Origin: Gemmata palustris
GTDB lineage: Bacteria > Planctomycetota > Planctomycetia > Gemmatales > Gemmataceae
Assembly: GCF_017939745.1 (NCBI RefSeq)
Contig: NZ_JAGKQQ010000001.1
Span: 6,089,299-6,153,298 of the forward strand
DNA length: 64,000 bases
Reading direction: 5' to 3'
The stretch's first letter is position 1. Each line of letters begins with the position of its first letter. The translations under genes and the position numbers were made by a program. Below the pieces are notes generated by a model that was given only the letters and a program-made list of their open reading frames with translations, had not been told where the DNA came from and did not search any database. This document shows positions 29,339 to 50,816 of the stretch, piece after piece.

Positions 29339-30775
29339 ATGAGTCGCGTTCGGAACTCGGGCTGGACCCTGCCGGTGATAGCCGCCGGGAGTCTGATTGC
29401 GCTCGCGGCGTGGCAACTGGTGCCCGCCAACCAACCGCCTGCGCCGAAGCCGGACCAACCACTGGTCGCGGAGCCGGCTGCGGCCCAACCGCCGGCGGCC
29501 AACGACTTCGCCGCGGTCATGGCGAAGATGAAGGCCGCGAAAGCCGACATCGCGAAGAAGCATAACGAAATGCTGGCCGCGCGGTACGACCTCGCGGAGC
29601 GCGCCGCGGCGGACGGGAAGATGACGCGCGGCAAGGCCGTGCAGCAGGGGCCGCGCGCGAAGCTGGCCGCCGGGACCACGTGGGCCGCACTCGCGGACAT
29701 GAAGCCGGAAGAGATCCGCGAGAAGGGGCTGTTCCCCGCCGGGTACCTACCGCTGCCGCACCCGAACCACCCCGAAGGCGGGATGCTGTTCCCGAAGTTC
29801 CACATCGACGAAATCAAGAAACAAGAGGCGCGCGACCTGACGCGGTTCGATCTCGATTTCGACCTTCCCGACCACTTCCTGCCCGAGTTCCCGCCGCCGA
29901 TCTTCCTGACCACCCGACTCGACCTCGGCGACATCTCGAAGGGTAAGCTCGTCACCATCGACAACTTCGAGGAGCTGTTCAAGGACGCACTGAACCCGAA
30001 ACAACTGGAAGGGCTGCGGTTGCTCGTTACCCCGTTCCCGCAACAGCAGTTCAACATGACCGCCGACCGGCGCAGCGAGAAGGCGCACCGCGGTGTCACG
30101 TGCTTCGACTGTCACGTGAACGGCCACACGAACGCGGCCACGCACTTGGTCGGCGACATCCGACCGCAAGAGTTCCGGCACCGCATCGACGTGCCCTCGC
30201 TGCGTGGCGTGAACGTGCAGCGGCTGTTCGGCTCGCAGCGCGCACTGAAGAGTATCGAGGACTTCACCGAGTTCGAGCAACGGGCCGCGTACTTCGACGG
30301 CGACCACACGCAGGCCGCGCGGAAGGGCGTCAACCCGCTGGACCGCGGCACCCAGGTCCACTTCATGGCAGAGTTCCAGGATCTGGTCGACTTCCCGCCC
30401 GCACCGAAGCTGGATTTGTTCGGGAAACTCGATCAATCGAAGGCGACCGACAGCGAGAAGCGCGGCGAGGCGCTGTTCGTCGGTAAGGCGAAGTGTTCGA
30501 CGTGCCACCCGGCCCCGTACTACACCGACAATACGCTACACAACTTGCAGACCGAACGGTTCTTTAAGCCGGTGACGGTACTCGGGCGGACGGCGAGCGT
30601 AGACGGGCCGATCAAGACGTTCCCGCTCCGCGGTATCAAGGACAGCCCGCCGTACCTGCACGACGGCCGGTTGCTCACGCTCGAAGACACGGTCGAGTTC
30701 TTCAACCTGATTCTCGAAACGAAACTCACCGAGGACGAGAAGAAAGATCTGGTCGCGTTTATGAAGTGCCTGTAA
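29339..30775 (+). CDS. di-haem cytochrome c peroxidase-family protein (signal-anchored)
   Basis: Two CxxCH haem motifs (CFDCH, CSTCH). N-terminal TM/signal. Confidence 0.7.
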   Translation: MSRVRNSGWTLPVIAAGSLIALAAWQLVPANQPPAPKPDQPLVAEPAAAQPPAANDFAAVMAKMKAAKADIAKKHNEMLAARYDLAERAAADGKMTRGKAVQQGPRAKLAAGTTWAALADMKPEEIREKGLFPAGYLPLPHPNHPEGGMLFPKFHIDEIKKQEARDLTRFDLDFDLPDHFLPEFPPPIFLTTRLDLGDISKGKLVTIDNFEELFKDALNPKQLEGLRLLVTPFPQQQFNMTADRRSEKAHRGVTCFDCHVNGHTNAATHLVGDIRPQEFRHRIDVPSLRGVNVQRLFGSQRALKSIEDFTEFEQRAAYFDGDHTQAARKGVNPLDRGTQVHFMAEFQDLVDFPPAPKLDLFGKLDQSKATDSEKRGEALFVGKAKCSTCHPAPYYTDNTLHNLQTERFFKPVTVLGRTASVDGPIKTFPLRGIKDSPPYLHDGRLLTLEDTVEFFNLILETKLTEDEKKDLVAFMKCL

Positions 30776-30781
30776 TCCGGA

Positions 30782-31132
30782 TTTCGTTGGGATTTTGTAG
30801 GGTGGGTCCAGGCTTTGCGCAGGCCCACCAGCCGGTCTTTGGCTTGCTGGTAGGCCCGGGGCTTGCGAGGCATTTTTGGTCTTGTGGGTCTTGTAGGGTG
30901 GGTCCGGGCTCTGCGCCGGCCCCTATCCGGTCTTCGACTCGTCAATGAGGAGCTTGCGAGCGCTTCGTTTATATTCGCGCTCGCAAGCAGGTGTGGTGGG
31001 TCTGCGCAGAGCCTGGACCCACCCTACAACTACAACAAAGAGCTTGCGGGCGCTTCGTTTGTATTCGCGCTCGCAAGCGGGTGTGGTGGGCCTGCGCAAA
31101 GCCTGGACCCACCCTACAAAATCCCAACGAAA
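30782..31132. mobile_element. 351-bp MITE-like / nested REP-like element with perfect 48-bp terminal inverted repeats
   Basis: tttcgttgggattttgtagggtgggtccaggctttgcgcaggcccacc (30782-30829) is the exact reverse complement of 31085-31132. Internal imperfect inverted pair at 30891-30923 / 30995-31030. Two ~90-bp direct units each carrying a 12-bp-stem hairpin gcttgcgagcgc…gcgctcgcaagc (30951-30987, 31041-31077). Confidence 0.65.
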
Positions 31133-31135
31133 CCC

Positions 31136-32866
31136 TTACCCGACCTTCGCGTGTGTGCCGTTCGTGCTCGGCGGCTTGCTCTCGGTGGGTGATTCGCTGG
31201 TGAGCTTCGCGAGGTACTCGGGCACCTCCACGCCGCCGATGTCCTTCATCACTTGCATCATCGGCGGCATCATCCGGGCCATGTTCTGAAGGAACGAAGC
31301 CGTGCTCGACGTGCCGGCGGCCGCGTTCCCTCCCCCACCACCTTCCCACACCACCACCTTGTCGAACTTGATGTTCGAGATGGCCTTCGCGGAGGCGTCC
31401 GCGAGCGCGTCCATGTGTTCGAGCATGAGCAACTGGAACGCGGCCTGTGGGCTGCCGCACGCATCGATGATCTTCTTCAACCCCTCGCCCTTCTTCGCCA
31501 GGATCTCGAATTGGCCGCGGGCCTCGGCTTCGAGCTTCGCGTAGATGGTCGCGGCGGCGGCTTGCGCTTCGAGCTTCACGCGCTCCGCAGCGGCCTCGGC
31601 GTCCACGATTATCTTCGCCTTCTGAGCCTTCGCGGGAGCTTCGAGCGCGGCGCGCTGTTCGGCTTCGATCTTCTCGGCCTGTGCGAGTGCGGCCCGGGCC
31701 ATCGCCTTGTTCTGCGCTTCCAGAACCGCGGCTTCCGCTTCGCGCTTCTTCGTTTCGGAAATTTGATACGCCTCGGCGTTCTTCACCGCGAGCGTGGCCT
31801 GCGCGCCCGCGATACTGGCTTGCGCAGTGGCCTCACCGCCGATCGCTGTGGCATTGGCTTCAGCCAAACGCACGCGCTTGTCGCGGTCGGCCTCGGCGAT
31901 GCGCGATTCCCGCTCGAACACGGCTTGCTGCTCGCCGACCTTCTGGTCGCGGTCGAGTTCGGCGATGCGGATCGCTTGCTGGCGCTGCGATTCCTTGATG
32001 AGCGTTTCTTGTTCGAGCAGCGCGGTCTGCTCGCCGACCTCCCGGTCCTTGTCGAGTTGGGCGACCTTGATGGCCTGCTCGCGGGTCGCTTCGCGGGTGC
32101 CGATCTCGCGCACCTTCGTCGCGTTCGCGACCGAGATGGCCCGCTCGCGCTCGGCCTCCGCGACGCCGATCTGCCCCTTCTTCTCTTGTTCCGCCACGTC
32201 GATTTTCGCTTGCTGGATCGCGACCGCGGCCGCCTTCCGGCCGATGGCCTCGATGTAGCCGCTCTCGTCCGTGATGTCGGTGATGTTCACGTTGATGAGC
32301 ACGAGGCCGATCTTCTTCAGCTCCGGTTCGAGCGACTTCTGCACGCTCTCCAAGAACTGGTCGCGGTTGCGGTTGATGTCCTCGATCCGCATGGACGCGA
32401 TCACCTGCCGCAGTTGGCCGAAGATGATGTCGCGCGCCTGTTCCTTGATCTCCTGGGTGCCGAGACCGAGGAGCCGGATCGCGGCGTTCTGCATCGTTTC
32501 CGGGTCGGTGCCGATGGCGACGGTGAACACGCTGGGCACGTTCACGCGGATGTTCTCGATCGAGAGGGCGCCCTTGAGCGGCACTTCGATCTGGATCGGG
32601 TCGAGGTTGAGGTAGGCGTAGTCCTGAACGAGGGGCAGCACGAACGCCGCACCGCCGTGGACGCACTTGGCCGCGTTCCCGCCGCCGGTCTTACCGTAGA
32701 TCACGAGGATGCGGTTCGAGGGGCAGCGCTTGTAGCGCCTCACGAGGAGCATGAGGAGGCTGAAGAGGACCAGCCCGGCGGCCAGTGCGGTGACGACCGG
32801 CCACGGGACGTCCGCGAGGTTCGGGTCGCCGGATTTCGATTGAGCGAGGAGAGCGAGCGACAACAT
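31136..32866 (-). CDS. floT: flotillin-like SPFH/band-7 protein (YqiK/FloT type)
   Basis: N-terminal TM, SPFH domain, long Ala/Glu/Lys coiled-coil repeats. Start at MLSL… with GGAG 7 nt upstream. Confidence 0.85.
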   Translation of the reverse strand: MLSLALLAQSKSGDPNLADVPWPVVTALAAGLVLFSLLMLLVRRYKRCPSNRILVIYGKTGGGNAAKCVHGGAAFVLPLVQDYAYLNLDPIQIEVPLKGALSIENIRVNVPSVFTVAIGTDPETMQNAAIRLLGLGTQEIKEQARDIIFGQLRQVIASMRIEDINRNRDQFLESVQKSLEPELKKIGLVLINVNITDITDESGYIEAIGRKAAAVAIQQAKIDVAEQEKKGQIGVAEAERERAISVANATKVREIGTREATREQAIKVAQLDKDREVGEQTALLEQETLIKESQRQQAIRIAELDRDQKVGEQQAVFERESRIAEADRDKRVRLAEANATAIGGEATAQASIAGAQATLAVKNAEAYQISETKKREAEAAVLEAQNKAMARAALAQAEKIEAEQRAALEAPAKAQKAKIIVDAEAAAERVKLEAQAAAATIYAKLEAEARGQFEILAKKGEGLKKIIDACGSPQAAFQLLMLEHMDALADASAKAISNIKFDKVVVWEGGGGGNAAAGTSSTASFLQNMARMMPPMMQVMKDIGGVEVPEYLAKLTSESPTESKPPSTNGTHAKVG

Positions 32867-32891
32867 GATGTAACTCCGGTTGGGTGCGGCA

Positions 32892-33455
32892 TCAGGCCGC
32901 TTCGACTTCAACGGTGTCCGAGTTGATTACGGCGACGACTTTGATCGGTTTGCCGGTCGCGAGTTCGGTGCCCGCGGTCATCGCCTGGCACTCAACGGTG
33001 CGGTTCTGGAGCGCGAGGTGAACTTTCCCCGAACCCTCTTTCGCGCCGGGGACGCGCAGGTACACGGTACCCGTACAGCCGACCGAGCGCTCGACGCGAA
33101 CGGTGCCGTCGGCCTTGAGTTGCTTCAGCGTGTTCATCGCGGTCGCGACGAGGTAGAAGGTGGCTGCGCCCGAACCGAGGGCCGCGCCGAAGGCCGCGAG
33201 TTCGCTCGCCCCGTAATAGCGCGCCGTCAGCCCACCGAGACCGAAGAACAGCAGCCCGGACGTGAGGGTCCGAACGGACAACATCCCGAAGAACCAGTTA
33301 CTAACGCCTTTTTCGTGCAGCCCGTCGTGGGCGGTATCGTGACCCGTGTCGTGATCGGTATCGTGATCGCCGCCGAACCCGATCATCCCCGCAACAAGCA
33401 GACAAACAACGAGCGTGCCGCCCGTAACCGCACAAACCAAGAAAATCGTTTCCAT
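32892..33455 (-). CDS. nfeD: NfeD-like (YqiJ) membrane protein, operon partner of flotillin
   Basis: Membrane helices plus a C-terminal OB-fold-like beta domain. Located immediately upstream of the flotillin gene on the same strand. Confidence 0.7.
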   Translation of the reverse strand: METIFLVCAVTGGTLVVCLLVAGMIGFGGDHDTDHDTGHDTAHDGLHEKGVSNWFFGMLSVRTLTSGLLFFGLGGLTARYYGASELAAFGAALGSGAATFYLVATAMNTLKQLKADGTVRVERSVGCTGTVYLRVPGAKEGSGKVHLALQNRTVECQAMTAGTELATGKPIKVVAVINSDTVEVEAA

Positions 33456-33686
33456 AATGGTCTCCGCCGGAGATTTCCGCTCGCACCCTGACGAAAATCG
33501 AGCGCTGCTACCCGGGCATTCGTTGGAACACCCTGATGATTTGAGAAGTTCGGGGAGGAGTCAACGAAAACCCGCAATCTGCCCAATCGAACGAAGCTTC
33601 ACAACCGAAAAAAACGACAGAACACGGGCAATCGGCGGCCGGGACATTCATTCGCGCCAGACACGCGGCGTGGTATCCTGTCAGCC

Positions 33687-35915
33687 ATGAAAACCACCAT
33701 CGCGCTCGCCCTAACCCTATCCAGTGCCGCCTTCGCGCACGCGGCCGACCCTACCCCAAGTAAATCCGTGGACACGTCGTTCCTGAAGAAGTTCGCGGAG
33801 ACGCGGCGGTTCATGTTGGGCCGCCCGCAAAACCCCAAAATCGCGCCCGATGGCAAGACGGTGCTGTTCCTCCGCGCCGAGGTCGACAAGCCCACGCTCA
33901 AGCTGTTCGAGTTCGATGTCGCGACCGCGCGGACGAAAGAAATTCTCTCTCCGGAGTCGCTGCTCAAAGGAAGTGCGGAGAACCTCACGCCCGAGGAGAA
34001 GGCCCGACGCGAGCGGATGCGGCTCTCCGCCGGCGGCTTCGCGGACTTCCACTTCGACAAAGACGGGACGAACATTCTTCTGCCGCTATCGGGCAAGTTG
34101 TTCGTGTACGAGCGCGCGACCGGGAAGGTCACCCAACTGAAGACCGGCGAGGGCGGCTCGGTCGTCGATCCGAAGTGGTCGCCGGACGGGAAGAAGGTCG
34201 CGTATGTTCGCGGGTTCGATGTGTTCGTGTGCGACCTCGCCACAAACACAGAGACCGCGGTCACGAAGGGCGGCACCGCGATCAAAACGCACGGACTGGC
34301 CGAGTTCGTGGCGCAAGAAGAAATGGGGCGGTTTACCGGGTACTGGTGGGCGCCCGATGGCAAGCACATCGCTTACGAAGAAGCCGACCACACCGGCGTC
34401 GAGACGTGGTTCGTCGCGGACCCGTTCAAACCGGACGCGAAACCGGCCGAGCAGTTCTACCCGCGCCCGGGCAAGAAGAACGTGAGCGTGCGATTGGGCG
34501 TGGTTCCAGTTGGGGGCGGGAAGACGGAATGGGTCGCGTGGGATCGTGAGAAGTACGAGTATTTGGCCGCAGTCAAGTGGGACAAGCGGGGCGGATTGAC
34601 CGCTCAACTTCAGAGCCGCAAGCAAAACAACATCGCACTGTATCAGGTTCAACCGGGAAGCGGGGAACTGAAGTTACTACTCAACGACGACACTCCCGGG
34701 GCCTGGACCAACTTACGGGGGTCGTTCCCGTGGTGGCTCGATAGTGACCGCTTTTTGTGGATCACAGAAAATGACGGCGACGCGCGGCTCGCCCTGTTCG
34801 ATCTCACACGGCCTTCCGAGAAGCCGGCGCGCTTCATCACCCCGTCCGACCTTCAAGTGACAGACATTGCTCAGCTCGATGAGAAAACAGGCGGCTTGCT
34901 CATTCAGGCAACGGACGACCCGTCACAGTCGAAGCTGTGGGCCGTCGGTACCAACCGGCCGGACGGCTCGGTAATCGCGCAAATCGACCGCACGGCCGCT
35001 CCAGGTATTCGCACAGCAGTCTACTCACCCGACATCAACATTAGCGTTCAGACCACGACCACACTTCAGCAGATGCCGAAATCCGTGGTGGGGTTTGAAG
35101 GCAATCGTGCGCTGGGCGAGTTACCGTCCGTCGCGATCGAACCAGACATCAAACTGAACGTGAAAATCGAGAAGGTCGGCGACTACTGGACCGCGGTCGT
35201 GCGGCCCCGCAACTTCGACCCGAAGAAAAAGTACCCGGTGATTGTGGACGTGTACGGCGGGCCGAAGCACCTGCACGTTGTCCAGGCGATGCGGAACTGG
35301 CTCGTCCCGCAATGGCTCGCGGATCAGGGGTTCGTTGTGGTCGCGGTTGATAATCGCGGAACGCCCGGCCGCGGGCGCGAGTGGGAGCGGAGCATCTACC
35401 AGAAGTTCGGTACCGTGCCCTTGGAAGATCAGGTGAAGGGGCTGAACCTCCTGTGCGCCAAGTTCCCGGAATTGGACAAGGACCGCGTGGGGATCGTGGG
35501 GTGGTCGTTCGGCGGGTACATGGCCGCGAACGGCGTGCTCCGCGCACCGGAAGTGTTCAAGGCCGCTGTTGCGGGCGCCCCGGTCACCGACTGGGAGGAC
35601 TACGACACGCACTACACCGAGCGCTACATGGGCTTACTTCCCGAATCCAGAAAGCAGTACGACGACGCGAGCCTGCTCCCGCTCGCCAAAGACCTAAAGC
35701 GCCCGCTGTTGCTGGTCCACGGCACCGCGGACGACAACGTGTACTACCGCCACACGCTGAAGCTCTCGAACGCACTGTTCCGTGCCGGCCGCGACTTTGA
35801 ATCACTGCCGTTACCGGGCGTCACGCACATGTACACGTCCGACCCGGTGGTGATGGAGCGCTTGTGGGCGAAGACCGCCACGTTCTTCAAAACTCACTTG
35901 GGCGAACCGAAGTGA
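33687..35915 (+). CDS. S9-family serine peptidase (dipeptidyl-peptidase IV-like), secreted
   Basis: Signal peptide, N-terminal beta-propeller region, C-terminal alpha/beta hydrolase with GWSFGGY nucleophile elbow. Confidence 0.85.
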   Translation: MKTTIALALTLSSAAFAHAADPTPSKSVDTSFLKKFAETRRFMLGRPQNPKIAPDGKTVLFLRAEVDKPTLKLFEFDVATARTKEILSPESLLKGSAENLTPEEKARRERMRLSAGGFADFHFDKDGTNILLPLSGKLFVYERATGKVTQLKTGEGGSVVDPKWSPDGKKVAYVRGFDVFVCDLATNTETAVTKGGTAIKTHGLAEFVAQEEMGRFTGYWWAPDGKHIAYEEADHTGVETWFVADPFKPDAKPAEQFYPRPGKKNVSVRLGVVPVGGGKTEWVAWDREKYEYLAAVKWDKRGGLTAQLQSRKQNNIALYQVQPGSGELKLLLNDDTPGAWTNLRGSFPWWLDSDRFLWITENDGDARLALFDLTRPSEKPARFITPSDLQVTDIAQLDEKTGGLLIQATDDPSQSKLWAVGTNRPDGSVIAQIDRTAAPGIRTAVYSPDINISVQTTTTLQQMPKSVVGFEGNRALGELPSVAIEPDIKLNVKIEKVGDYWTAVVRPRNFDPKKKYPVIVDVYGGPKHLHVVQAMRNWLVPQWLADQGFVVVAVDNRGTPGRGREWERSIYQKFGTVPLEDQVKGLNLLCAKFPELDKDRVGIVGWSFGGYMAANGVLRAPEVFKAAVAGAPVTDWEDYDTHYTERYMGLLPESRKQYDDASLLPLAKDLKRPLLLVHGTADDNVYYRHTLKLSNALFRAGRDFESLPLPGVTHMYTSDPVVMERLWAKTATFFKTHLGEPK

Positions 35916-35924
35916 GGATTAATT

Positions 35925-36524
35925 GTGATTCGGAGTGAGATTTCGGGACGAAAACGGCTCTTGAAAGGGTGTGCCATTGCGTGGACGGTGGCGCACCTCT
36001 TCCCAGACTATTCATGTCGGCGGGCTCTTCTTGTCGCAGAAAAACTCGCTGACGGGAACGCAACCAGCGATGACTGGTCGGCTGCTATCTCGCAATGCGG
36101 TGCGCACCTCTATCACCTGCGAATGACGGAGGACGCGAAAGTTGCAGCCGACATGGTGTGTTGGATTCACCTTTGTGGTAGAACACCGCCCGATCAACTT
36201 TACGAACGACTACTACACACCGCGGCAGGCGCACTCGCCCGACCAACCCAGGAGCGAGATTATTGGCTGAGCCATTTTCAATCTCTTTTTAACGATATTG
36301 AAACACATTCAGGACCATTTTCTCCATCGTGGCGTACCGGAACTGTCGGATCACTTGCTCGTGTAATGTACGAGTCACGCGACTTCAGCGCGATGCCGAT
36401 CCTGGCCGACGCACTTCAGGACGCCGGCTGCGACAACGCCGACATTCTTTCTCACTGCCGCGATACGTCGCTGACACACGTCCGCGGGTGCTGGGTTGTT
36501 GACCTCGCACTCGGCAAGCAGTGA
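35925..36524 (+). CDS. hypothetical protein (conserved C-terminal MPILADALQDAGC…HCR…HVRGCWVVDL motif)
   Basis: 199-aa ORF with lower GC than its surroundings. Family not securely identified. Confidence 0.45.
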   Translation: MIRSEISGRKRLLKGCAIAWTVAHLFPDYSCRRALLVAEKLADGNATSDDWSAAISQCGAHLYHLRMTEDAKVAADMVCWIHLCGRTPPDQLYERLLHTAAGALARPTQERDYWLSHFQSLFNDIETHSGPFSPSWRTGTVGSLARVMYESRDFSAMPILADALQDAGCDNADILSHCRDTSLTHVRGCWVVDLALGKQ

Positions 36525-36551
36525 CGTTAATCTCACGGTGAGGAGGCTCAT

Positions 36552-37145
36552 ATGACTGCTAACCCACCCCCATCATCGGAACGCTCGCGCCGGTTGACCC
36601 GAGAGCAGTATTACGAACTCGGTAACCGCGGCTTCTTCGACGGTAAGCGGGTCGAACTCATTTTCGGAGAGGTCGTCGAAATGAGTCCGATCAACTGGCC
36701 CCACGCGCTCGGTGTAGGACTCGTCACGGACATACTCCGGGTTGCTTTCACACCAGACTACTGGATCAACGTCCAGCAACCGTTCTCGGTGTTGGGCTTG
36801 GCTTTTGGTTCGGAACCACAACCGGACGTGGCCGTAATTCCGGGCACGAAACGAGACTACACCGATCACCCGACCGTCGCGGCCCTGATCGTCGAAGTCG
36901 CGGACGCAACCCTGTCTAACGACCTCACGACGAAGGCCGAACTGTACGCGACCGCGCACGTCCCCGAATATTGGGTGTTGGACGTGGCGAACCGACAACT
37001 CCACGTCTTCCGCAACCCGGCGCCTCTCGCCGCCGGATTAGACGCCACGGCCTACGGCTCGCACGCGACACTGGCACCCACAGACACCGTTTCGCCGCTC
37101 GCGGCCCCCGGCGCATCGATCCGGGTTAGCGATCTTCTGCCGTGA
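36552..37145 (+). CDS. Uma2-family (DUF820) putative restriction-endonuclease-like protein
   Basis: Typical Uma2 layout: …LTREQYYEL……PDVAVIPG…YWVLDV… PD-(D/E)xK-like core. Confidence 0.75.
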   Translation: MTANPPPSSERSRRLTREQYYELGNRGFFDGKRVELIFGEVVEMSPINWPHALGVGLVTDILRVAFTPDYWINVQQPFSVLGLAFGSEPQPDVAVIPGTKRDYTDHPTVAALIVEVADATLSNDLTTKAELYATAHVPEYWVLDVANRQLHVFRNPAPLAAGLDATAYGSHATLAPTDTVSPLAAPGASIRVSDLLP

Positions 37146-37241
37146 ACACGAACCACCGCGTTGTCGCGGGGCGCCGCGTCCACTATGCTTATTAAACGAG
37201 CGAACTTGCAGACACTTTCGGGTGCCGGGTGAGTGCGCCAC

Positions 37242-37328
37242 GGAGAGGTGGCAGAGTGGTCGATTGTGCAGCACTGGAAATGCTGTGTACGGGAAACCGT
37301 ACCGAGGGTTCGAATCCCTCCCTCTCCG
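37242..37328 (+). tRNA. tRNA-Ser (anticodon GGA)
   Basis: Acceptor GGAGAGG/CCTCTCC. Anticodon stem CAGCA/TGCTG with loop CTGGAAA. Long variable arm GTACGGGAAACCGTAC. T-loop GAGGG-TTCGAAT-CCCTC. Discriminator G. Confidence 0.9.
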
Positions 37329-37654
37329 CTTGACGGTTCACATCACGCGCCCCGATGTCATTCCCGCGAACCCGTTTCGCCGGGTTCATAGTCCCACTTC
37401 ACAGAATCATAATTCGTCCGTGACACGTTCCGCACAGAACACGGTCTCCGGGCACGAAATCCCTTGCGATCGCCAGAACCGGACCTTACGTTAAACCCTG
37501 TTCCAACGATCCCGTCACCCGGTGGCGAGTACCGCACCGTTCGCACGTTCCCAACACAGCACGAGGAGAAGGTACGACACCGGCCCGTCCGAGTTCTATT
37601 CCCGCTCGCGGCTCCGTGCCCCGTAGAGACCGATAGAGGAAGCCCCTAATCGCT

Positions 37655-40579
37655 ATGGCAAGTTGGCCGACCCAATCCGACTACAAGGACGCGCTCCAGA
37701 ACCCGGACACCGCGTTCCGCGACCCGGACCTGCGCCAGAGCCGGGCGGAGCGCAGCCCGATGGGGGTTCCGCGCGCGCGGTCGGGTGCGTTCGCCAGCGT
37801 GTACAAGATGACCGGGCCGAAGGGCGTGGTCGCGCTCAAGTTGTTCAACTTCCCCAACGAGGACCGCGCGCGGCGCTACCGGGCCGTTTCCGATTACCTC
37901 GAACTCACGCTCGGCCCCAAGAAGCCGCCGTGCGTGGTCAAGTTCCGGTACCACGCGGACGGAATCCGGGTCGGGAAGCTGTGGTACCCCACGCTCACGA
38001 TGGCCTGGGTCAAAGGCGTGTCCCTCGGCGAGTGGGTGCGGCAAGCCGTCGAGCGCAAGGGGCCCGGCCTCGCGGACGTCCGAAAGATGGCCGATAGCTG
38101 GGTCGCCCTCACGGAACAGCTCCGAAGCACGAAGATCGCGCACGGCGACCTCCAGCACGACAACATCATGGTGGTGGGCGACGCGCCGGTGCTGGTCGAC
38201 TACGACGGCATGTGCGTGCCCGCGCTCGACCCGGCCGACCCGACGAAGAAGCTCGAACAACTCGAATTCGGCAAGCCCGCGTACCAGCACCCGGCCCGGG
38301 CCGTCGAGCGCCTCGGCAGCACCCTCGACCAGTTCTCGGCGTGGGTCATCTTCATCGCCCTCCGCGCGATCGTGGCCGACCCGCAGTTGTACGCGAAGTA
38401 CGTGCTCAAGACCGATAACGAGAACCTGCTGTTCACGCCGGCCGACATGCAGCACCCGGCCGCGTCGGAACTGTGGCCGGACCTGATCGCGTGCAAAGAT
38501 CCCGAGATCAGCGGATGGGCACGGGCACTGCGGGAATCACTCGACAAGCCGTTCAACAAGATCCCCCCGTTCACGCTCGATCCGTTCGTCCGGTTGCGGA
38601 AGCTCGCCGGGGCGGGCACGCGCGACTGGGTTCAGATCGAGGCCGAAACGGAGCGCCTCAAGAAAACCGGTAAGGACGTACCCGTGGACCTCTGGGACCG
38701 GGTGAACCCGGTCGGCGCGCTGAGGGAACTGTGCGCGGCGCGGGTCAAGGATTGGGTGAAGATCGCGGGCGAGGGCGAACGGCTGCTCGCGACCGGGCGC
38801 TTACTGCCGACCGATGTGAAGCCCGTGTACGAGGGCGCCCGCAAGCGCGTCGCCGCGCGCAACGCGGTAAAGAAGGCCCTGGATGATCGCAACCCCCGGG
38901 CGGCCGTAACCGCGTACCAGGCGGCTCTGATCGACGACTGGGCGGACCCGAAGCTCGTTACGGGGGCCAAAGCCGCGGCCGAACAGGTGCCCCTGCTTAA
39001 CGAGCTGAAGGCCGCGGTCGCGGCACCGGGGGACGGTCGGGCACTCGTGAAACTCTGGGACGCCCACGCCCCGAAACTCGCGACCGTTGCGGAAGCGCGG
39101 ATCTACGAGGCGGCCGCGGCCGGGTGGCGCACGCGCATCAAAGCGGCCGACACCTTCCTCCGCGTGTTCGCCAAATCCCCGCAGACCGAGCGCGAGGTTG
39201 CTGAAGCATGGCAAGCCGTTCTCGCGGCCGGGCCGTTGCACCCCAGCGTGACCGAAGTACACCGCCAGCGCGGAACGGATGCGCTCCGCTGGTGGCCGCT
39301 TTTGGAGCGGCTCCGGCGCTTACCGAATGCCGCAGCCCACGAGAACGATACCCAGTTGCTCACCGCCTGGGGAAACGGTTCCGCGCTCGCCGGGTGCGCG
39401 GAGGCGATCCCGTTCGCTCACCGCGCGATCGAAGCGCGCGAGCGGGTCGCGCTCGTGGACGCGCTCGAACGCGCGATCAAACAGGCCGAACAGGGCGGTC
39501 CCGAAGACGCCGTCGTTGCGGCCGCGAAAAAGTTGCCCGCGGGCTACCCGCACCCGCACGCGAACCGCGCCGGCGAGGGGTCCGAGGGGCTCTGGCTCAT
39601 GGCCGAAGTCCAGCGCGCGATCGACCGCCCGCGCCCGTCGGACCGCGCGATCGCCGCCGCGTATGACAAGCTCAAAGAGAAGAACCCGCGGCTCGCGGAC
39701 CGGCTCGAGCGCGTGAACCCGGCGCTGTACGCCGAGGGCGAGAAGGCAACTCAGCGGCGGCAGTTGCTCGACCGGTTCGCGCGCATCGACGCCGAAGAGC
39801 TCCGCGTGGACAAACAGGACCAGAGGTGGCTCGCGCTGTGGTCCGAGCACGGCAAGGCACTCAGCGACCGGGCCGACCGCGAGGAACTCCGCGCCCGGCT
39901 CACTCTGGCCCGCGACCGGCTCGAGAAATGGAGCAAGATCGCCGAAGCGCTCGCGGCCCGCGACGTGTTCGCGCTCCGCAAGCAGTTCGCAGCCCACAGC
40001 GCGGCCCTCGCCAACTACCCGCCGTTCGCGGACCGTCTGGGCGAGATTCAGGAACTGCTGGCGCGGGCCGATCGGATCACCAGTATCCAGCAAAAGATCG
40101 ACGCGACGGCCGCGCTCGCGCCCGACGACCTGGCGTTTCTGCGAGACAATCACAGCGTGTTCGATGCGGACACCAAATCGGCGATCGAAACTCAGGTGCG
40201 TGCGCGGTTGGCCGGCGAAGCGCGGCTCGTGCCGGCGTTCCCGGCGTATTCGAGCGCGGGCAAGCGCGGCGGACTGGTGAAAGCGTGTTGGTCGTGGGGC
40301 GGGCACGGGCTGATTTCGCACTGCATCGTCGCGGTGGACGGGCGCCGCTTCCTCGCGGACCCGTCCGAGGCGGACCCGTATTCGCGCATCAACTGTCTGC
40401 CCGAGAACCACCAGCGCGAGGGCGGGGGAATCACGCTCGTACCGCCCAACGGTGCGCCGCAGGCGTATGTGACGATCTGGCCGGTCGTGGAATTGGGGTG
40501 GAAGACGATCTACGGGGCGCCGTTGACCATCGGTCCCGTGCCCGTCGGTAGCACCAGCCCGAGCGCGAGCCGGTGGTGA
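37655..40579 (+). CDS. large (974 aa) protein with N-terminal protein-kinase-like/APH-like domain and long Ala/Arg-rich helical C-terminal region
   Basis: GAFASVYK…VVALKLF (Gly-loop / Lys). IAHGDLQHDNIMV (catalytic loop). LVDYDGM (DFG-like). About 650 aa of predicted helical repeats and a unique C-terminal domain. Confidence 0.6.
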   Translation: MASWPTQSDYKDALQNPDTAFRDPDLRQSRAERSPMGVPRARSGAFASVYKMTGPKGVVALKLFNFPNEDRARRYRAVSDYLELTLGPKKPPCVVKFRYHADGIRVGKLWYPTLTMAWVKGVSLGEWVRQAVERKGPGLADVRKMADSWVALTEQLRSTKIAHGDLQHDNIMVVGDAPVLVDYDGMCVPALDPADPTKKLEQLEFGKPAYQHPARAVERLGSTLDQFSAWVIFIALRAIVADPQLYAKYVLKTDNENLLFTPADMQHPAASELWPDLIACKDPEISGWARALRESLDKPFNKIPPFTLDPFVRLRKLAGAGTRDWVQIEAETERLKKTGKDVPVDLWDRVNPVGALRELCAARVKDWVKIAGEGERLLATGRLLPTDVKPVYEGARKRVAARNAVKKALDDRNPRAAVTAYQAALIDDWADPKLVTGAKAAAEQVPLLNELKAAVAAPGDGRALVKLWDAHAPKLATVAEARIYEAAAAGWRTRIKAADTFLRVFAKSPQTEREVAEAWQAVLAAGPLHPSVTEVHRQRGTDALRWWPLLERLRRLPNAAAHENDTQLLTAWGNGSALAGCAEAIPFAHRAIEARERVALVDALERAIKQAEQGGPEDAVVAAAKKLPAGYPHPHANRAGEGSEGLWLMAEVQRAIDRPRPSDRAIAAAYDKLKEKNPRLADRLERVNPALYAEGEKATQRRQLLDRFARIDAEELRVDKQDQRWLALWSEHGKALSDRADREELRARLTLARDRLEKWSKIAEALAARDVFALRKQFAAHSAALANYPPFADRLGEIQELLARADRITSIQQKIDATAALAPDDLAFLRDNHSVFDADTKSAIETQVRARLAGEARLVPAFPAYSSAGKRGGLVKACWSWGGHGLISHCIVAVDGRRFLADPSEADPYSRINCLPENHQREGGGITLVPPNGAPQAYVTIWPVVELGWKTIYGAPLTIGPVPVGSTSPSASRW

Positions 40580-40629
40580 TTCGGCGGGCGGGCCGCGCCA
40601 ATTCCTTCAGCACGTCATCCGGTCAAAGT

Positions 40630-41568
40630 TCACTCCGCGGGAAGCGCCTTGCCCTTCGCGGCGAGGAGGCGCCCGAGTTGATCGGCGCTCAGGCGCGGAT
40701 CGTCGGTGAGCAGCGCGCCGAGTTCCGTTAAAACGAAGTCTTCCAAATCGTCACCGGCCCAGCCCTCGGCAATGAGCTTTCCGCCGACGTGTTCGAGCGC
40801 ACGGTCGCGGAGCTTGTCCGTGCGCCGGGTGAGCGTGCCCTCGTTCAAATTGAACAGCTTCGCGGCCTCGCGCTGGCTCAACCGGTACCGCCACCGGAGG
40901 CCGAGCAGCAGGCGCTCGTCGTCATCAATGGTGCCGAGCCACTCGCGCGCCGCGGAGACGAACGTCTCGTGCCACCGGTCCGAACCGTTCGCCTTCGGCG
41001 CGTCCATCGGGAGCGCGATTTCATCGTCCGGGAGGGCCGTGACACCGGTGGTCTGGCGCAACTTCGAGAGGTGCCAGTTCTGGAACACGCGGATCAGCCA
41101 CGGGGCCAGCGGGCGCTGGCCGTCGTACCGCGCGAGCACGGGGAGCGTGCCCTCGCTCTCGGGCGCGATCAGATTGCTCCAGAACTCCGTTACGGCCGTG
41201 TCCTGGCGCTCTTCGTTGCGCGGGTAGAGGCGCACCGCTCGGGCGCGGAGCGCGTCCACGAGCAGGCAATCACTGCGCCCGGTGCGGGCGTTGAACAGCG
41301 CCTCCCACGCGGCGTTCTGCCCGTCCAGGCACCCGACGCAGACGAGCCAATCGACCGCGTACAGGCCCTCCAGGTACCCCGCCCAGGAGAGCGGGCCGGG
41401 GGCCTTCGGGAGGAAAATGCGGAGCGTGCGCTGGAGGTGCGTGAGGAACGCCGGTTCGGAGAGCTTGACTGCGGGCATTTGGAGCCGCGCGAAGTGGTAG
41501 AGCAGCGTGACGCGGCCCTTGTCCGCGGGGCTGAGCGGCGGCAGTTCCGGGGGTGCAATCACGGCCAA
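40630..41568 (-). CDS. sigma-70/ECF-like DNA-binding regulator (region-4-type HTH at C-terminus)
   Basis: C-terminal …LLLGLRWRYRLSQREAAKLFNLNEGTLTRRTDKLR… resembles sigma region 4. N-terminal part is atypical. Confidence 0.4.
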   Translation of the reverse strand: MAVIAPPELPPLSPADKGRVTLLYHFARLQMPAVKLSEPAFLTHLQRTLRIFLPKAPGPLSWAGYLEGLYAVDWLVCVGCLDGQNAAWEALFNARTGRSDCLLVDALRARAVRLYPRNEERQDTAVTEFWSNLIAPESEGTLPVLARYDGQRPLAPWLIRVFQNWHLSKLRQTTGVTALPDDEIALPMDAPKANGSDRWHETFVSAAREWLGTIDDDERLLLGLRWRYRLSQREAAKLFNLNEGTLTRRTDKLRDRALEHVGGKLIAEGWAGDDLEDFVLTELGALLTDDPRLSADQLGRLLAAKGKALPAE

Positions 41569-47598: not shown

Positions 47599-47828
47599 GG
47601 CGGGTCTCATTTTATTTGGGAGAACACAACGTCGCGTACCGGTCATGGTGCGGAACGGGCGCGGGTTCGTCCACCGACGACGGAGTTCCAAGTTCCCGAA
47701 CCCCGAGTTCCGGGTTCAAAACGCCCCATAACTTCGCGCCCTCGGTCTTCAACCTGGAACCCGGGAAAATCGTTCAACCATTCGCTTCGGTCTTCCCTTT
47801 TTTCGCGCGCACCGGTATTCCGCGGGTC

Positions 47829-48812
47829 ATGAGGCCGCACTCCCGCTCGACCCGTGTCGCGTTTCGCAGTGCGGTGGGTGCGTCCGTTGCCATTCACGTT
47901 GTCGTTGCAATAGCGCTTTTCGTTCTGTCGCGCTCCGAAGAGCAAAAGCCGCGCGAAGCGGCGATCAACACCCGCGCTTCGGCCGACCCGGACGTGCGGA
48001 TGCGCTTCACCGAGGACGCAGCCGGAGTCGAGGTCTCGCCACAGCCGGTTCCACCAACGCCTCCGACACCGACACCACCAAGCACGACTCCCGAGATCAC
48101 ACCCACGAAACCCGCGCCCACCGCACCACAACCGCCCGAAGCATTAACGGGTACGAGTGCGGATCAGGCGCTGTCGGCGGGACCGTTTAAACCCGCTGTG
48201 CCCAAGGCACTTCCGCCCGAACTTGTTGCGCTGATCCGCAAACCGGGCGCGATCACGACTTCGCCCCCCGCGCCTCCATCAGCTGTCCACGACCCCAACG
48301 TGAAGCCCGCGAGCGGCATCAGTGGAGCGAAGCCCGGTACATCTGCCGCGCGCGCGATACACGGCGCATTGGGTCCGACGCAAACGGTGGTGTACGTCCT
48401 CGACACTTCGGGCAGCATGGGTGCAGCGGGGAAATTCGATGCGGCCCGTGCCGCGCTCGTCGCCACACTCAAACAGCAGCCCGCGACCGTGCGGTTCCAG
48501 GTGGTTGTTTACGACAGCAGCGCTTACCCGCTCCTCGCGTCCAACGGCACCGCGCTAGCCGCGACCGACGCGAACGTCCGCGCCGCGACCACCGCACTCG
48601 CGGCACTGAACTCGCGGGGGAAGAGCAACCACCTCGTCGCGGTGCGTACCGCGCTCGACTTCGGCCCCGACATCATCGTGCTGCTCACGGACGCGGACGA
48701 CCTGACCGCCCGTACTCTCAAACCTGTGTTGTCATCAGTTCCGAAACCGCCCCTGGTCTGTGTCGGACTTGTCACCGCGGAGGGCGTACAACAGCCACGC
48801 GAGTTGAAATAA
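47829..48812 (+). CDS. membrane-anchored von Willebrand factor A (vWA) domain protein with Pro-rich linker
   Basis: TM helix (VAIHVVVAIALFVL), PTPPTPTPP linker, MIDAS motif VLDTSGSM plus downstream vWA fold. Confidence 0.7.
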   Translation: MRPHSRSTRVAFRSAVGASVAIHVVVAIALFVLSRSEEQKPREAAINTRASADPDVRMRFTEDAAGVEVSPQPVPPTPPTPTPPSTTPEITPTKPAPTAPQPPEALTGTSADQALSAGPFKPAVPKALPPELVALIRKPGAITTSPPAPPSAVHDPNVKPASGISGAKPGTSAARAIHGALGPTQTVVYVLDTSGSMGAAGKFDAARAALVATLKQQPATVRFQVVVYDSSAYPLLASNGTALAATDANVRAATTALAALNSRGKSNHLVAVRTALDFGPDIIVLLTDADDLTARTLKPVLSSVPKPPLVCVGLVTAEGVQQPRELK

Positions 48813-48822
48813 CGGAGGCGAC

Positions 48823-49602
48823 ATGCCGAGCAAGCTCGTTTCGTGGCCGCGCCCGCATTTCGTACCCGGGGGCGGTGACCCGTTCCTGTTCTTCGTGGTG
48901 TTCGGCGACTTCGATCTGACCAAGCCGTTCAGTGCGCTAAAGTACCGCTCCCACGGCCCGGGTACGTGGTTGGAGGTCGTTCGGCTCACCCGCGCCGAAG
49001 CCCCGACCGAGGCCGCGGAGTACCAGTCCGGCCCACTGTGGGAACAGATCCGGCGCGACGCGCCGGTAACGGCATCTGAAGCGGAACGTGCCCCGCACAC
49101 GGTGGTCGTTCGCGGCACTGCGACCGATCCGAACACGCTCGACTACTTCCGCGACGCGATCGGCGTCGTCTCGTGGCTGCTCGATTGCGGCGGGACGTCG
49201 GTTTACGACCCGCAGCGCTTGTGGTTGTGGTCCGCCGACGAGTGGCGGGACGAAGTGTTCGCGCTGGGCGAATCGCAACCGCTGGCCCACACCGTGATCC
49301 TGGTGTCGGACGACGACAAGCCCGAAACGACGTGGCTCCACACGCGCGGGATGCGCCAGTACGGGCGCCCGGACCTGAGTGTTCGCGGCGTCGGCCCGAC
49401 TCACATTGATGCGGTCACGGAGATGATCGAGCGCTTCACCGCGTTTCAGGCGCTCGGCGGCGTGATTAGTGAGGGCGAAAGCATCCGAATGGAAGCGCTC
49501 CCGCCGGGCGGTGTGTGCCACCCGCGCGGGACCCTCGAAGACCCCGATTTCAACAACGTTCACGTCGCAATCGAGTGGGCGAACGGTGCGATTGGGGACT
49601 AA
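48823..49602 (+). CDS. hypothetical protein
   Basis: 259-aa ORF with native GC and no recognisable motif. Translationally close to the vWA gene (10-nt gap). Confidence 0.4.
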   Translation: MPSKLVSWPRPHFVPGGGDPFLFFVVFGDFDLTKPFSALKYRSHGPGTWLEVVRLTRAEAPTEAAEYQSGPLWEQIRRDAPVTASEAERAPHTVVVRGTATDPNTLDYFRDAIGVVSWLLDCGGTSVYDPQRLWLWSADEWRDEVFALGESQPLAHTVILVSDDDKPETTWLHTRGMRQYGRPDLSVRGVGPTHIDAVTEMIERFTAFQALGGVISEGESIRMEALPPGGVCHPRGTLEDPDFNNVHVAIEWANGAIGD

Positions 49603-49697: not shown

Positions 49698-50612
49698 TCA
49701 AGCCAGCTGATCTTCGTACTCGTCAGCGTCCTCGTTCGTCCCGTCTTGCGGCGGAGTGTTCGCGAACTCGGCGCTCGACGGGTTGTGCGCATCGATCGAC
49801 CGGAGCAACTTCGCCGCCTCTTCCAGTTCGTTCCCCATGCAGCACACGCTGATGACCACTTCCGCGAGCGCCGCGAACGGGAGGTCGTTTGTGAGTTCAA
49901 CCCAGCGCGCGAGTTCGGTCGCGGTGAGTTCCGGCAACTTGCGGGCGAGGTACGCTTCGCGCATCCGGGCGTCCGGGGCGTCGATGCGCAGGATGCGGTC
50001 GAAGCGACGGGGGCGCGAGATGATGCGCCGGTCGAGTTTCTCCGGGTAGTTGGTCGTCGCGAGGTTCACGGCCTTGTCGACTTGGTGGTTGCCGTCGAGC
50101 CACTGGAGCAGTTCGGAGTCGCCGTACTGCTCGATGATGGCGTCGATGTCCTCGAACACGCACACGATCGGTCGGGTCGGTTCCACCTCGCGGAACTTCT
50201 GCATGCAGTGGATAAAGTGGCCGGGGTACTGGCAGTAAAACGCGAGGTGCCCGTCGGCGACCACATCCGAGATGATCTGGTTGACCAGCGACGACTTCCC
50301 GCACCCCTGCTTGCCGTAGAGCAGGTACCCGCGCCGGTGCAGGTACCCGTAGCGCGCGAACCGGTCGCCCAGCGCCCAGAACTTCTTGATCTCGTTCTGC
50401 ACTTGAGCCGGGAGGCTGTCCGGGAAGTGGATCAGTTCGTCCGCCTGGACGTCGCGGCCCTGGTAGTTCGGGTGCCCGCAACTATCGAGGAACACGGTGT
50501 ACGCGCCGGCCGGGAGCACGTCGGCCGTGCGCCCGCACACCTGGTACTTGTTCGGCCCGGTAATCATCCACTGGTAGCCGTACTCGTTGCGGACCGGGAG
50601 ACGGTTCACCAT
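49698..50612 (-). CDS. classic-clade AAA ATPase with ~135-aa unknown N-terminal domain
   Basis: Walker A GKQGCGKS. Walker B IVCVFEDID. Sensor-1/Arg-finger region NLATTNYPEKLDRRIISRPRRFDRIL. Start preferred at Met 50612 (GAGG RBS); alternative GTG at 50816. Confidence 0.75.
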   Translation of the reverse strand: MVNRLPVRNEYGYQWMITGPNKYQVCGRTADVLPAGAYTVFLDSCGHPNYQGRDVQADELIHFPDSLPAQVQNEIKKFWALGDRFARYGYLHRRGYLLYGKQGCGKSSLVNQIISDVVADGHLAFYCQYPGHFIHCMQKFREVEPTRPIVCVFEDIDAIIEQYGDSELLQWLDGNHQVDKAVNLATTNYPEKLDRRIISRPRRFDRILRIDAPDARMREAYLARKLPELTATELARWVELTNDLPFAALAEVVISVCCMGNELEEAAKLLRSIDAHNPSSAEFANTPPQDGTNEDADEYEDQLA

Positions 50613-50816
50613 TGTGCCCTCGAAGGGTGAGAATTCGCGAACAGGACCGCTGAAGTTGGTTCGTGGTTCGCGCGCGGAAATTGGGGAGCGGAGAAATTTG
50701 TAACCCAGCGCGGGGCCGAACGCAGTGTCGGTAGTCGGGCGAAAATCTTTGAGTCGCGGGCGCGCCCCGCGTAACGTAGCCGGGAACCGTTTCGCTACTC
50801 GCTCCCGGAGCCGCAC

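Follow-up and report, generated by a model that had tools for sequence, protein, structure and literature searches.

The GTPase-centric DO-GTPase/GAP1 conflict systems were defined by Kaur, Burroughs, Iyer, and Aravind in 2020 (PMC7159879). GAP1-N2 systems include a fibronectin type III (FNIII) component to which variable N-terminal domains may be joined, and a "third theme" of these systems, comprising an active kinase, a PP2C protein, and a stand-alone vWA protein, was reported to be restricted to actinobacteria (PMC7159879); Gemmata is not mentioned in the text consulted. TerY-P triads have been characterized as phosphorylation switches tied to other defense systems (PMC11090510, summarizing earlier work), and stand-alone antiphage activity is ascribed to their kinase-OB versions (Gao et al. 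2020, per PMC11090510, whose TerY-P sources also include Anantharaman et al. 2012). Here we describe a gene encoding a 974-amino-acid (aa) protein in a 64,000-nucleotide stretch of the Gemmata palustris genome (contig NZ_JAGKQQ010000001.1, positions 6,089,299 to 6,153,298), referred to below as the window. This gene very probably encodes the Ser/Thr kinase of a composite GAP1-N2/TerY-P conflict system that is conserved across the Gemmataceae and whose partners have been lost at this locus. The assignment is based on homology and domain architecture, on the operons of relatives, on the absence of the partner genes from the window, and on purifying selection on the orphaned gene.

The locus resembles both described systems in part. 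As in TerY-P triads, the kinase (aa 3 to 318) fits the STK_OB model, and the operon of its relatives encodes TerY and PP2C proteins; in contrast to these triads, the kinase domain is followed by a rod of ~550 aa and an FNIII-like end rather than an OB fold or zinc ribbon, and the window lacks TerY and PP2C. As in GAP1-N2 systems, the Gemmataceae orthologues are located between DO-GTPase2 (PF19993) and GAP1-N2 (PF20013) genes and combine an FNIII component with a variable N-terminal enzymatic domain, here the kinase. The differences are that the system is planctomycetal, that a single FNIII domain lies behind the rod, and that DO-GTPase2 and GAP1-N2 are missing from the window.

Kinase domain

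The N-terminal region of the 974-aa protein matched the PADLOC model of TerY-P kinases (PDLC02223 STK_OB) with an E value of 8.1e-53 (178 bits), the match covering only model positions 2 to 300 of 562. An AlphaFold2 (AF2) model built from a 67-sequence alignment had a mean predicted local distance difference test score (pLDDT) of 88.8, with values of ~90 over aa 40 to 300, and consisted of three parts: a kinase-like α/β region reaching to about aa 300, an all-helical region (aa ~310 to 852), and a β-sandwich (aa 859 to 963). Comparison of the model with the PDB using Foldseek returned 1191 matches at an E value of ≤1e-3, and all 50 of the matches listed were protein kinases of the eukaryotic type, with LIMK1, ASK1, PINK1, CaMKII, and JAK at the top (E, ~4e-6). 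At the sequence level, a phmmer search of the PDB aligned aa 59 to 313 with PAK1 (E, 0.01). In this alignment, K62 takes the position of the β3 lysine (PAK1 K299), HGDLQHDN corresponds to HRDIKSDN, and DYD corresponds to DFG, while GKPAYQHP is paired with GTPYWMAPE and DQFSAW with DIWSLG.

A homologue search with the full protein retrieved 407 sequences, nearly all of ~900 to 980 aa; wherever a source was named, it belonged to the Gemmataceae (Gemmata, Frigoriglobus, and Fimbriiglobus). Across 67 homologues, the residues G44, A47, V49, H163, G164, D165, Q167, H168, N170, D182, Y183, D184, Y210, H212, D225, and W230 were invariant and G185 nearly so. The protein thus shares with Hanks-type kinases the bilobal fold, the HxD...N loop, the DFG-like DYD, the APE-like YQHP, and the subdomain IX motif DxFSAW. 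It differs from them in having HGD in place of HRD, a glutamine in place of the catalytic-loop lysine, and a conserved N-terminal extension of ~40 aa (WPxxxDYxxALQNP). By sequence comparison and structural modeling, the 974-aa protein has a genuine non-RD Ser/Thr protein kinase fold of the TerY-P type. A preliminary description of the locus, made from the letters alone, had proposed a protein kinase- or APH-like fold with a non-RD loop and a DYDG metal-binding motif. Both motifs are indeed present, and the kinase part of that proposal holds; the APH-like part does not, the fold being of the eukaryotic-like Ser/Thr type.

The protein could instead be a pseudokinase or scaffold whose fold is kept for binding only. 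The sole Pfam match of the 974-aa protein was a weak one to TCAD9 (20.9 bits); PF00069 was not matched, and no Pfam kinase threshold was reached, whereas distant relatives do pass PF00069 (53.9 bits against a cutoff of 31.7 for the Bacteroides locus L068, and several other homologues as well). NCBIfam likewise gave only a weak Bud32 match (~17 bits), and taken alone, the Pfam, NCBIfam, and PDB sequence matches are weak hints and not decisive. The β3 lysine is kept in the clade of the window protein and replaced by arginine in a few distant members. There is also no invariant αC glutamate: the acidic residue at that position is D80 by the PAK1 alignment, which is kept in close clades and replaced by K, S, or N in distant ones. 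In addition, most kinase domains of the VMAP ternary systems are inactive (Kaur et al.). Because D80 is not invariant and the β3 lysine is sometimes arginine, we only infer catalytic competence. A pseudokinase is nevertheless unlikely. D165, N170, and D182 are invariant in all 67 sequences, the residues of the Gly-rich loop are conserved, and K62 is conserved within the clade. Furthermore, a PP2C phosphatase is retained in the operon of the relatives, which implies real phosphorylation, and the kinases linked to GAP1-N2 have been termed catalytically active (PMC7159879).

Helical rod and FNIII-like end

The region behind the kinase domain is rich in alanine (19.5%), leucine (10.9%), and arginine (10.6%) and was modeled as a rod of about ten helix pairs, each pairing a short helix with a long one. 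Despite this structural periodicity, no significant internal sequence repeat was detected in the rod. The rod is followed by a C-terminal β-sandwich resembling an FNIII domain, in which W879, W881, and W942 are invariant and C890 is near-invariant. The long helical region and distinct C-terminal domain given in the preliminary description are therefore both present, with the helical part reduced from ~650 to ~550 aa and the end assigned to an FNIII-like fold instead of being unique. No 19-residue segment of the 974-aa protein showed transmembrane-level hydrophobicity (maximum Kyte-Doolittle mean, 1.49), which makes a cytoplasmic location of the kinase probable.

When the rod and FNIII regions were searched against 1.84 billion cluster representatives, only 197 relatives were recovered. 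Full-length matches to these regions were to proteins in which the alignment begins near residue 300; the rod-FNIII module is therefore essentially always joined to this kinase domain. Among the homologues, a protein of 700 aa (P0109) has a TerY-P-type kinase domain 75% identical to aa 1 to 306 of the window protein and carries a second, canonical Pkinase domain in place of the rod and FNIII regions; another of 743 aa (P0111) has the same Pfam domains. In a 1672-aa homologue (P0079), two alignments of the helical module to the window protein precede the FNIII end, and four stretches were matched in a 1638-aa homologue (P0081). Judged by these two homologues, rod length appears to be evolvable.

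Operon context in relatives

In relatives, the kinase gene is part of a recurrent gene order consisting of DO-GTPase2, in some cases a 23S_rRNA_IVP gene, the kinase, GAP1-N2, and genes for proteins of ~134, ~700, ~298, and ~570 to 610 aa. This order was found in Fimbriiglobus ruber, Gemmata obscuriglobus, Gemmataceae CJuql4, and ~20 metagenome-assembled genomes (MAGs), and it spans three kinase clades with ~65 to 75%, 53%, and 33 to 46% identity to the window kinase. DO-GTPase2 (PF19993) is a protein of ~700 aa with a zinc ribbon and transmembrane segments, and its gene lies directly upstream of the kinase orthologue in most related loci with enough flanking sequence; in two loci (L018 and L026) it lies ~4 kb upstream. 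The GAP1-N2 gene, encoding a protein of 900 to 1340 aa (PF20013/PF20014), is found downstream of the kinase in most relatives. Frigoriglobus tundricola and G. algarum represent intermediate states in which the GTPase is retained and GAP1 is lost. On the P0012 contig, no member of a second kinase clade was found, and the kinase is present there in one copy only.

The ~298-aa protein of the operon is TerY (PADLOC E, 9e-78; the Pfam vWA match is weak), and a PP2C domain is found in the last protein (PADLOC E, 4e-22; L022, 19667 to 21508). The Gemmataceae GAP1-N2 operons end with the TerY vWA gene (L022, 18764 to 19660; L006, 16764 to 17660) followed by a vWA-like/PP2C fusion gene. With TerY and PP2C at the operon end, a complete TerY-P triad is thus split around GAP1-N2. 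More-distant relatives (Rhodoplanes, Streptomyces, Bacteroidales, Armatimonadota, and others) share the kinase domain only, and most adjoin TerY-like genes; the Rhodoplanes and Bacteroides loci, viewed in detail, also contain PP2C and are canonical TerY-P triads. The Gemmataceae operon is a planctomycetal version of the GAP1-N2 kinase/PP2C/vWA theme with an embedded TerY-P triad.

Loss of partner genes

None of these partners is present in the window. tblastn searches of the 64 kb for DO-GTPase2, IVP, GAP1-N2, the 134-aa and 709-aa proteins, TerY, and PP2C yielded only chance matches (best E, 0.11). For TerY, queries from both L006 and Rhodoplanes gave matches only at an E value of >1, and the best PP2C match had an E value of 0.12. 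A vWA protein encoded elsewhere in the window (47616 to 48812) had no PADLOC TerY match. The partner genes are likewise missing in the closest relative, Gemmata sp. SH-PL17/IIL30, whose kinase is 85% identical. In SH-PL17 the upstream order of the window is kept (Band7, DPP-IV, hypothetical, Uma2, tRNA-Ser, kinase), and a HAMP histidine kinase follows the kinase. A pattern scan of GTDB representative genomes revealed only a single family member in IIL30.

By comparison, the G. obscuriglobus orthologue (70% identical) is located in an intact DO-GTPase2-kinase-GAP1-N2 core. Moreover, a tRNA-Ser(gga) gene lies directly upstream of DO-GTPase2 in three related loci (L003, 5019 to 5106; L017, 7445 to 7532; L030, 7147 to 7234), the genomes concerned being F. 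tundricola, another Frigoriglobus, and a clade-B MAG. In one further locus (L001), tRNA-Ser(gga) lies upstream of an orphan kinase, as it does in the window (Table 1). Because the core is intact in G. obscuriglobus and the tRNA precedes DO-GTPase2 in three relatives, the orphan state is best regarded as derived. Given the order in these relatives, the adjacency of tRNA and kinase in the window would be what remained after deletion of the GTPase gene.

Table 1. Features of the tRNA-Ser, kinase, and sigma-like region; positions are those of the window
Feature	Position	Strand	Basis or remark
tRNA-Ser(GGA)	37242-37329	+	ARAGORN; Rfam RF00005, 58 bits
Non-coding spacer, 325 bp	37330-37654	+	Between tRNA and 974-aa open reading frame (ORF)
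974-aa kinase ORF	37655-40579	+	974 codons
N-terminal extension and predicted Hanks-type non-RD Ser/Thr kinase domain, TerY-P lineage (aa 1-305)	37655-38569	+	PADLOC, Foldseek, phmmer, AF2
Catalytic loop HGDLQHDN (aa 163-170) through DFG-equivalent DYDG (aa 182-185)	38141-38209	+	
All-helical rod, Ala/Leu/Arg-rich (aa ~306-853)	38570-40213	+	AF2 secondary structure, pLDDT 83-94
C-terminal FNIII-like β-sandwich (aa ~854-965)	40214-40549	+	
50-bp gap	40580-40629		Between kinase and sigma-like stop codons
312-aa sigma-70/ECF-like ORF (ECF, extracytoplasmic function)	40630-41568	-	Convergent with kinase ORF

The spacer between the tRNA and the kinase occupies the site at which relatives carry DO-GTPase2, with or without the 23S_rRNA_IVP gene. 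No remnants of DO-GTPase2 or IVP were detected in it by tblastn or blastn. It shows weak similarity to the spacer 3' of the tRNA in L017 (74% over 61 nucleotides; E, 0.001), and a consensus promoter scan gave a single weak sigma-70-like match (37385 to 37413). The layout of a tRNA-Ser(GGA) followed by the 974-aa ORF and a convergent sigma-like ORF 50 bp away is as first described, with the tRNA confirmed by ARAGORN and Rfam. The spacer, in contrast, is not the AT-richer stretch of ~330 bp that it had been taken for: its GC content of 59.4% falls within the range of other intergenic spacers of the window (53 to 64%; window overall, 64%).

The tRNA-Ser gene and the genomic island question

The position of the kinase at the 3' end of a tRNA gene, the only one that ARAGORN found in the window, had led to the suggestion that it belongs to an integrated element. 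The kinase, and ancestrally the whole system, would then be the cargo of an island integrated at the tRNA-Ser(GGA) 3' end. The linkage of tRNA-Ser(gga) with the system in at least four genomes of two kinase clades, with differing genes 5' of the tRNA, is consistent with this possibility, as are the defense-like content and the rearrangement-prone nature of the region. However, the tRNA 3' end (23 nucleotides, ≤3 mismatches) had no further copy in the window outside the tRNA itself, and a direct-repeat scan of positions 37200 to 64000 revealed no relevant repeat. No integrase or recombinase was present among the neighboring genes scanned; the genes flanking the kinase are DPP-IV, a hypothetical gene, Uma2, the sigma-like gene, MlaD/OmpA, and LigA. 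The GC content (68.8%) and the GC content at third codon positions (GC3; 0.87) of the kinase gene are typical for genes of the window, which bears out the earlier impression of native composition. Kinase identities also roughly track genus relationships, and a tRNA within 10 kb is lacking from the majority of intact systems, among them the one in G. obscuriglobus. We therefore consider island integration improbable. The recurring tRNA-Ser linkage with differing 5' genes could be an ancient linkage, recurrent tRNA-proximal insertion, or an origin-near rearrangement hot spot.

A DnaA gene (Bac_DnaA and Bac_DnaA_C domains; 57765 to 59372, + strand) places the window near the origin, and in the Frigoriglobus locus L003, DnaA and DnaN lie within 8 kb of the tRNA-Ser/system locus. 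Directly 5' of the tRNA is a gene for a Uma2-family putative restriction endonuclease (36552 to 37145, + strand), which is the most diverged gene of the block syntenic with SH-PL17 (58% aa identity; nonsynonymous divergence [dN], 0.37). A subthreshold Rfam match to RF04351, a plastid 3' untranslated region family, lies antisense to the tRNA (37277 to 37328, - strand; 48 bits against a gathering threshold of 68) and is almost certainly a tRNA-like artifact.

Retention of the orphan kinase

Between the window and SH-PL17, the ratio of dN to synonymous divergence (dS) was 0.14 for the whole kinase gene at a dS of ~0.6, with regional values of 0.086 for the kinase domain, 0.058 for the FNIII domain, and 0.18 for the rod, where constraint is weakest; these values are approximate, as strong GC3 bias may damp dS. 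The neighboring DPP-IV gene had a ratio of ~0.30 (dN, 0.18; dS, 0.59), so that the value for the kinase gene is comparable or lower. The window, L077, SH-PL17, and IIL30 all have an intact 974-codon ORF, and the catalytic motifs are all retained. Judged by these data, the orphan kinase is under purifying selection and not decaying. A functionless remnant of the lost operon, which the disappearance of all partner genes from the locus might suggest, is thus highly improbable given the intact ORF, the retained motifs, and ratios below 0.09 in both globular domains.

Besides the approximate nature of these ratios and the weak Pfam results and variable K62 and D80 positions discussed above, two further points weigh against the assignment to a composite GAP1-N2/TerY-P system that lost its partners. 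The search for DO-GTPase2 homologues was not exhaustive and returned only 54 matches, and the absence of the partners covers the window and not the whole genome. In addition, the defense or conflict role of GAP1-N2 systems is a computational prediction, and this kinase family is known from sequence.

The steps beyond the facts given above follow what PMC7159879 and PMC11090510 describe for these families. The FNIII domain would substitute for the OB fold or zinc ribbon seen in other TerY-P kinases, and the rod and FNIII end may serve together as a sensor or adaptor that binds a partner or ligand. Where the system is intact, a TerY/PP2C/STK switch would have the kinase as its phosphorylating output, with PP2C acting in opposition, and the switch would be under the control of the membrane-associated DO-GTPase and GAP1-N2. 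The flanking partner genes would have been lost in the lineage to which the window belongs (Gemmata sp. G18-like and SH-PL17/IIL30): DO-GTPase2 was presumably deleted between the tRNA and the kinase, and the downstream genes were presumably replaced via a rearrangement that placed an unrelated sigma-like gene beside the kinase. In this genome, the kinase may act alone or with partners encoded elsewhere. It is conceivable, if rather doubtful, that the kinase-rod-FNIII protein has been domesticated, that is, kept as a stand-alone sensor kinase in a new role or as a single-protein defense module.

The sigma-like neighbor

Modules of ECF sigma factors and Ser/Thr kinases exist in planctomycetes, and the adjacency of a kinase gene and an ECF-like gene in the window resembles them. 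The convergent gene encodes a 312-aa protein that is 100% identical to a protein of Gemmata sp. G18 named "sigma-70 family RNA polymerase sigma factor" at NCBI and 93% identical to its counterpart in SH-PL17; 1863 homologues were found, and the 120 listed are 73 to 100% identical. Two NCBIfam models matched below their cutoffs, TIGR03001 over aa 64 to 265 (E, 1e-9) and TIGR02937 over aa 144 to 258 (E, 3e-8; 33.5 bits against a cutoff of 42.9), and together these matches span regions 2 and 4. By eye, PWLIRVFQNWHLSKLR resembles ECF region 2.3/2.4, and LSQREAAKLFNLNEGTLTRRTDKLR resembles region 4.2. An hhalign comparison with Escherichia coli RpoE aligned region 2.3/2.4 through 4.2 weakly (probability, 9.6%), and a profile of the family had no match in the PDB. 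A divergent ECF-like sigma factor extended at both termini is a plausible identity for the protein, in agreement with the sigma-like character first ascribed to it.

The proposed pairing of the two genes fared less well. If they formed a regulatory pair, the sigma factor would be controlled through phosphorylation; in favor of this are the 50-bp distance, the sigma-70/ECF-like nature of the neighbor, and the recurrence of the adjacency in L077 (ENA ERZ26867449), a 99%-identical genome that shares the window arrangement. In contrast to the planctomycete ECF/kinase modules, however, the adjacency is limited to these two near-identical genomes, and the sigma-like gene was absent from the other related kinase loci (70-odd), in which the conserved partners of the kinase are DO-GTPase2, GAP1-N2, TerY, and PP2C. 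In SH-PL17, the sigma-like gene is located ~125 kb from the kinase, at the end of a conserved block of epimerase, NDK, PIN, LigA, MlaD/OmpA, and sigma genes, and the window carries the NDK-to-sigma part of this block inverted. Nucleotide synteny with SH-PL17 extends from 29697 to 40577 and ends at the kinase stop codon. Because this synteny stops exactly there and the sigma block lies elsewhere in SH-PL17, the 50-bp gap is, on comparative grounds, identified as a rearrangement junction where the kinase block meets the NDK-LigA-MlaD-sigma block in inverted orientation. A consensus scan revealed no convincing terminator in the gap. As the two genes are convergent, they are also not cotranscribed. 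The lack of a conserved linkage largely refutes a regulatory pair, which is thus very improbable; the sigma-like gene is an accidental neighbor, a conserved Gemmataceae gene with its own context elsewhere and not functionally tied to the kinase.

Other genes of the window

A second, canonical Ser/Thr kinase (Pkinase, 151 bits) fused to 12 Sel1 repeats is encoded at 6085 to 9072 (- strand) and is unrelated to the TerY-P-type kinase. Positions 9251 to 16234 (- strand) encode a giant protein of 2327 aa with eight Big_3_5 Ig-like domains and FG-GAP and PATR repeats, which is probably a surface or adhesin-like protein. The vWA protein at 47616 to 48812 (+ strand) is not TerY-like. Its gene lies beside one for a 259-aa protein (48823 to 49602, + strand), and the gene at 49698 to 50816 (- strand) encodes a divergent AAA ATPase that has weak matches to IetA in PADLOC (E, 8e-11). 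This cluster may be another vWA/ATPase module.

Implications

With these results, a "hypothetical protein" family of ~400 sequences, nearly all from Gemmataceae, very probably finds its place in a predicted immune or conflict system that has already been defined. Described as actinobacterial, the TerY-P kinase/phosphatase/vWA theme of GAP1-N2 systems is present in Planctomycetes too, where it has a distinct kinase-rod-FNIII architecture. The kinase/ECF sigma pair is removed as a false lead, and the current understanding of these systems is not overturned. A partnerless copy that is under selection could be used to ask what role the kinase has without the GTPase switch. Should the domestication considered above prove true, the Gemmata protein would illustrate, in nature, how one component of a multigene immune system survives and works alone.

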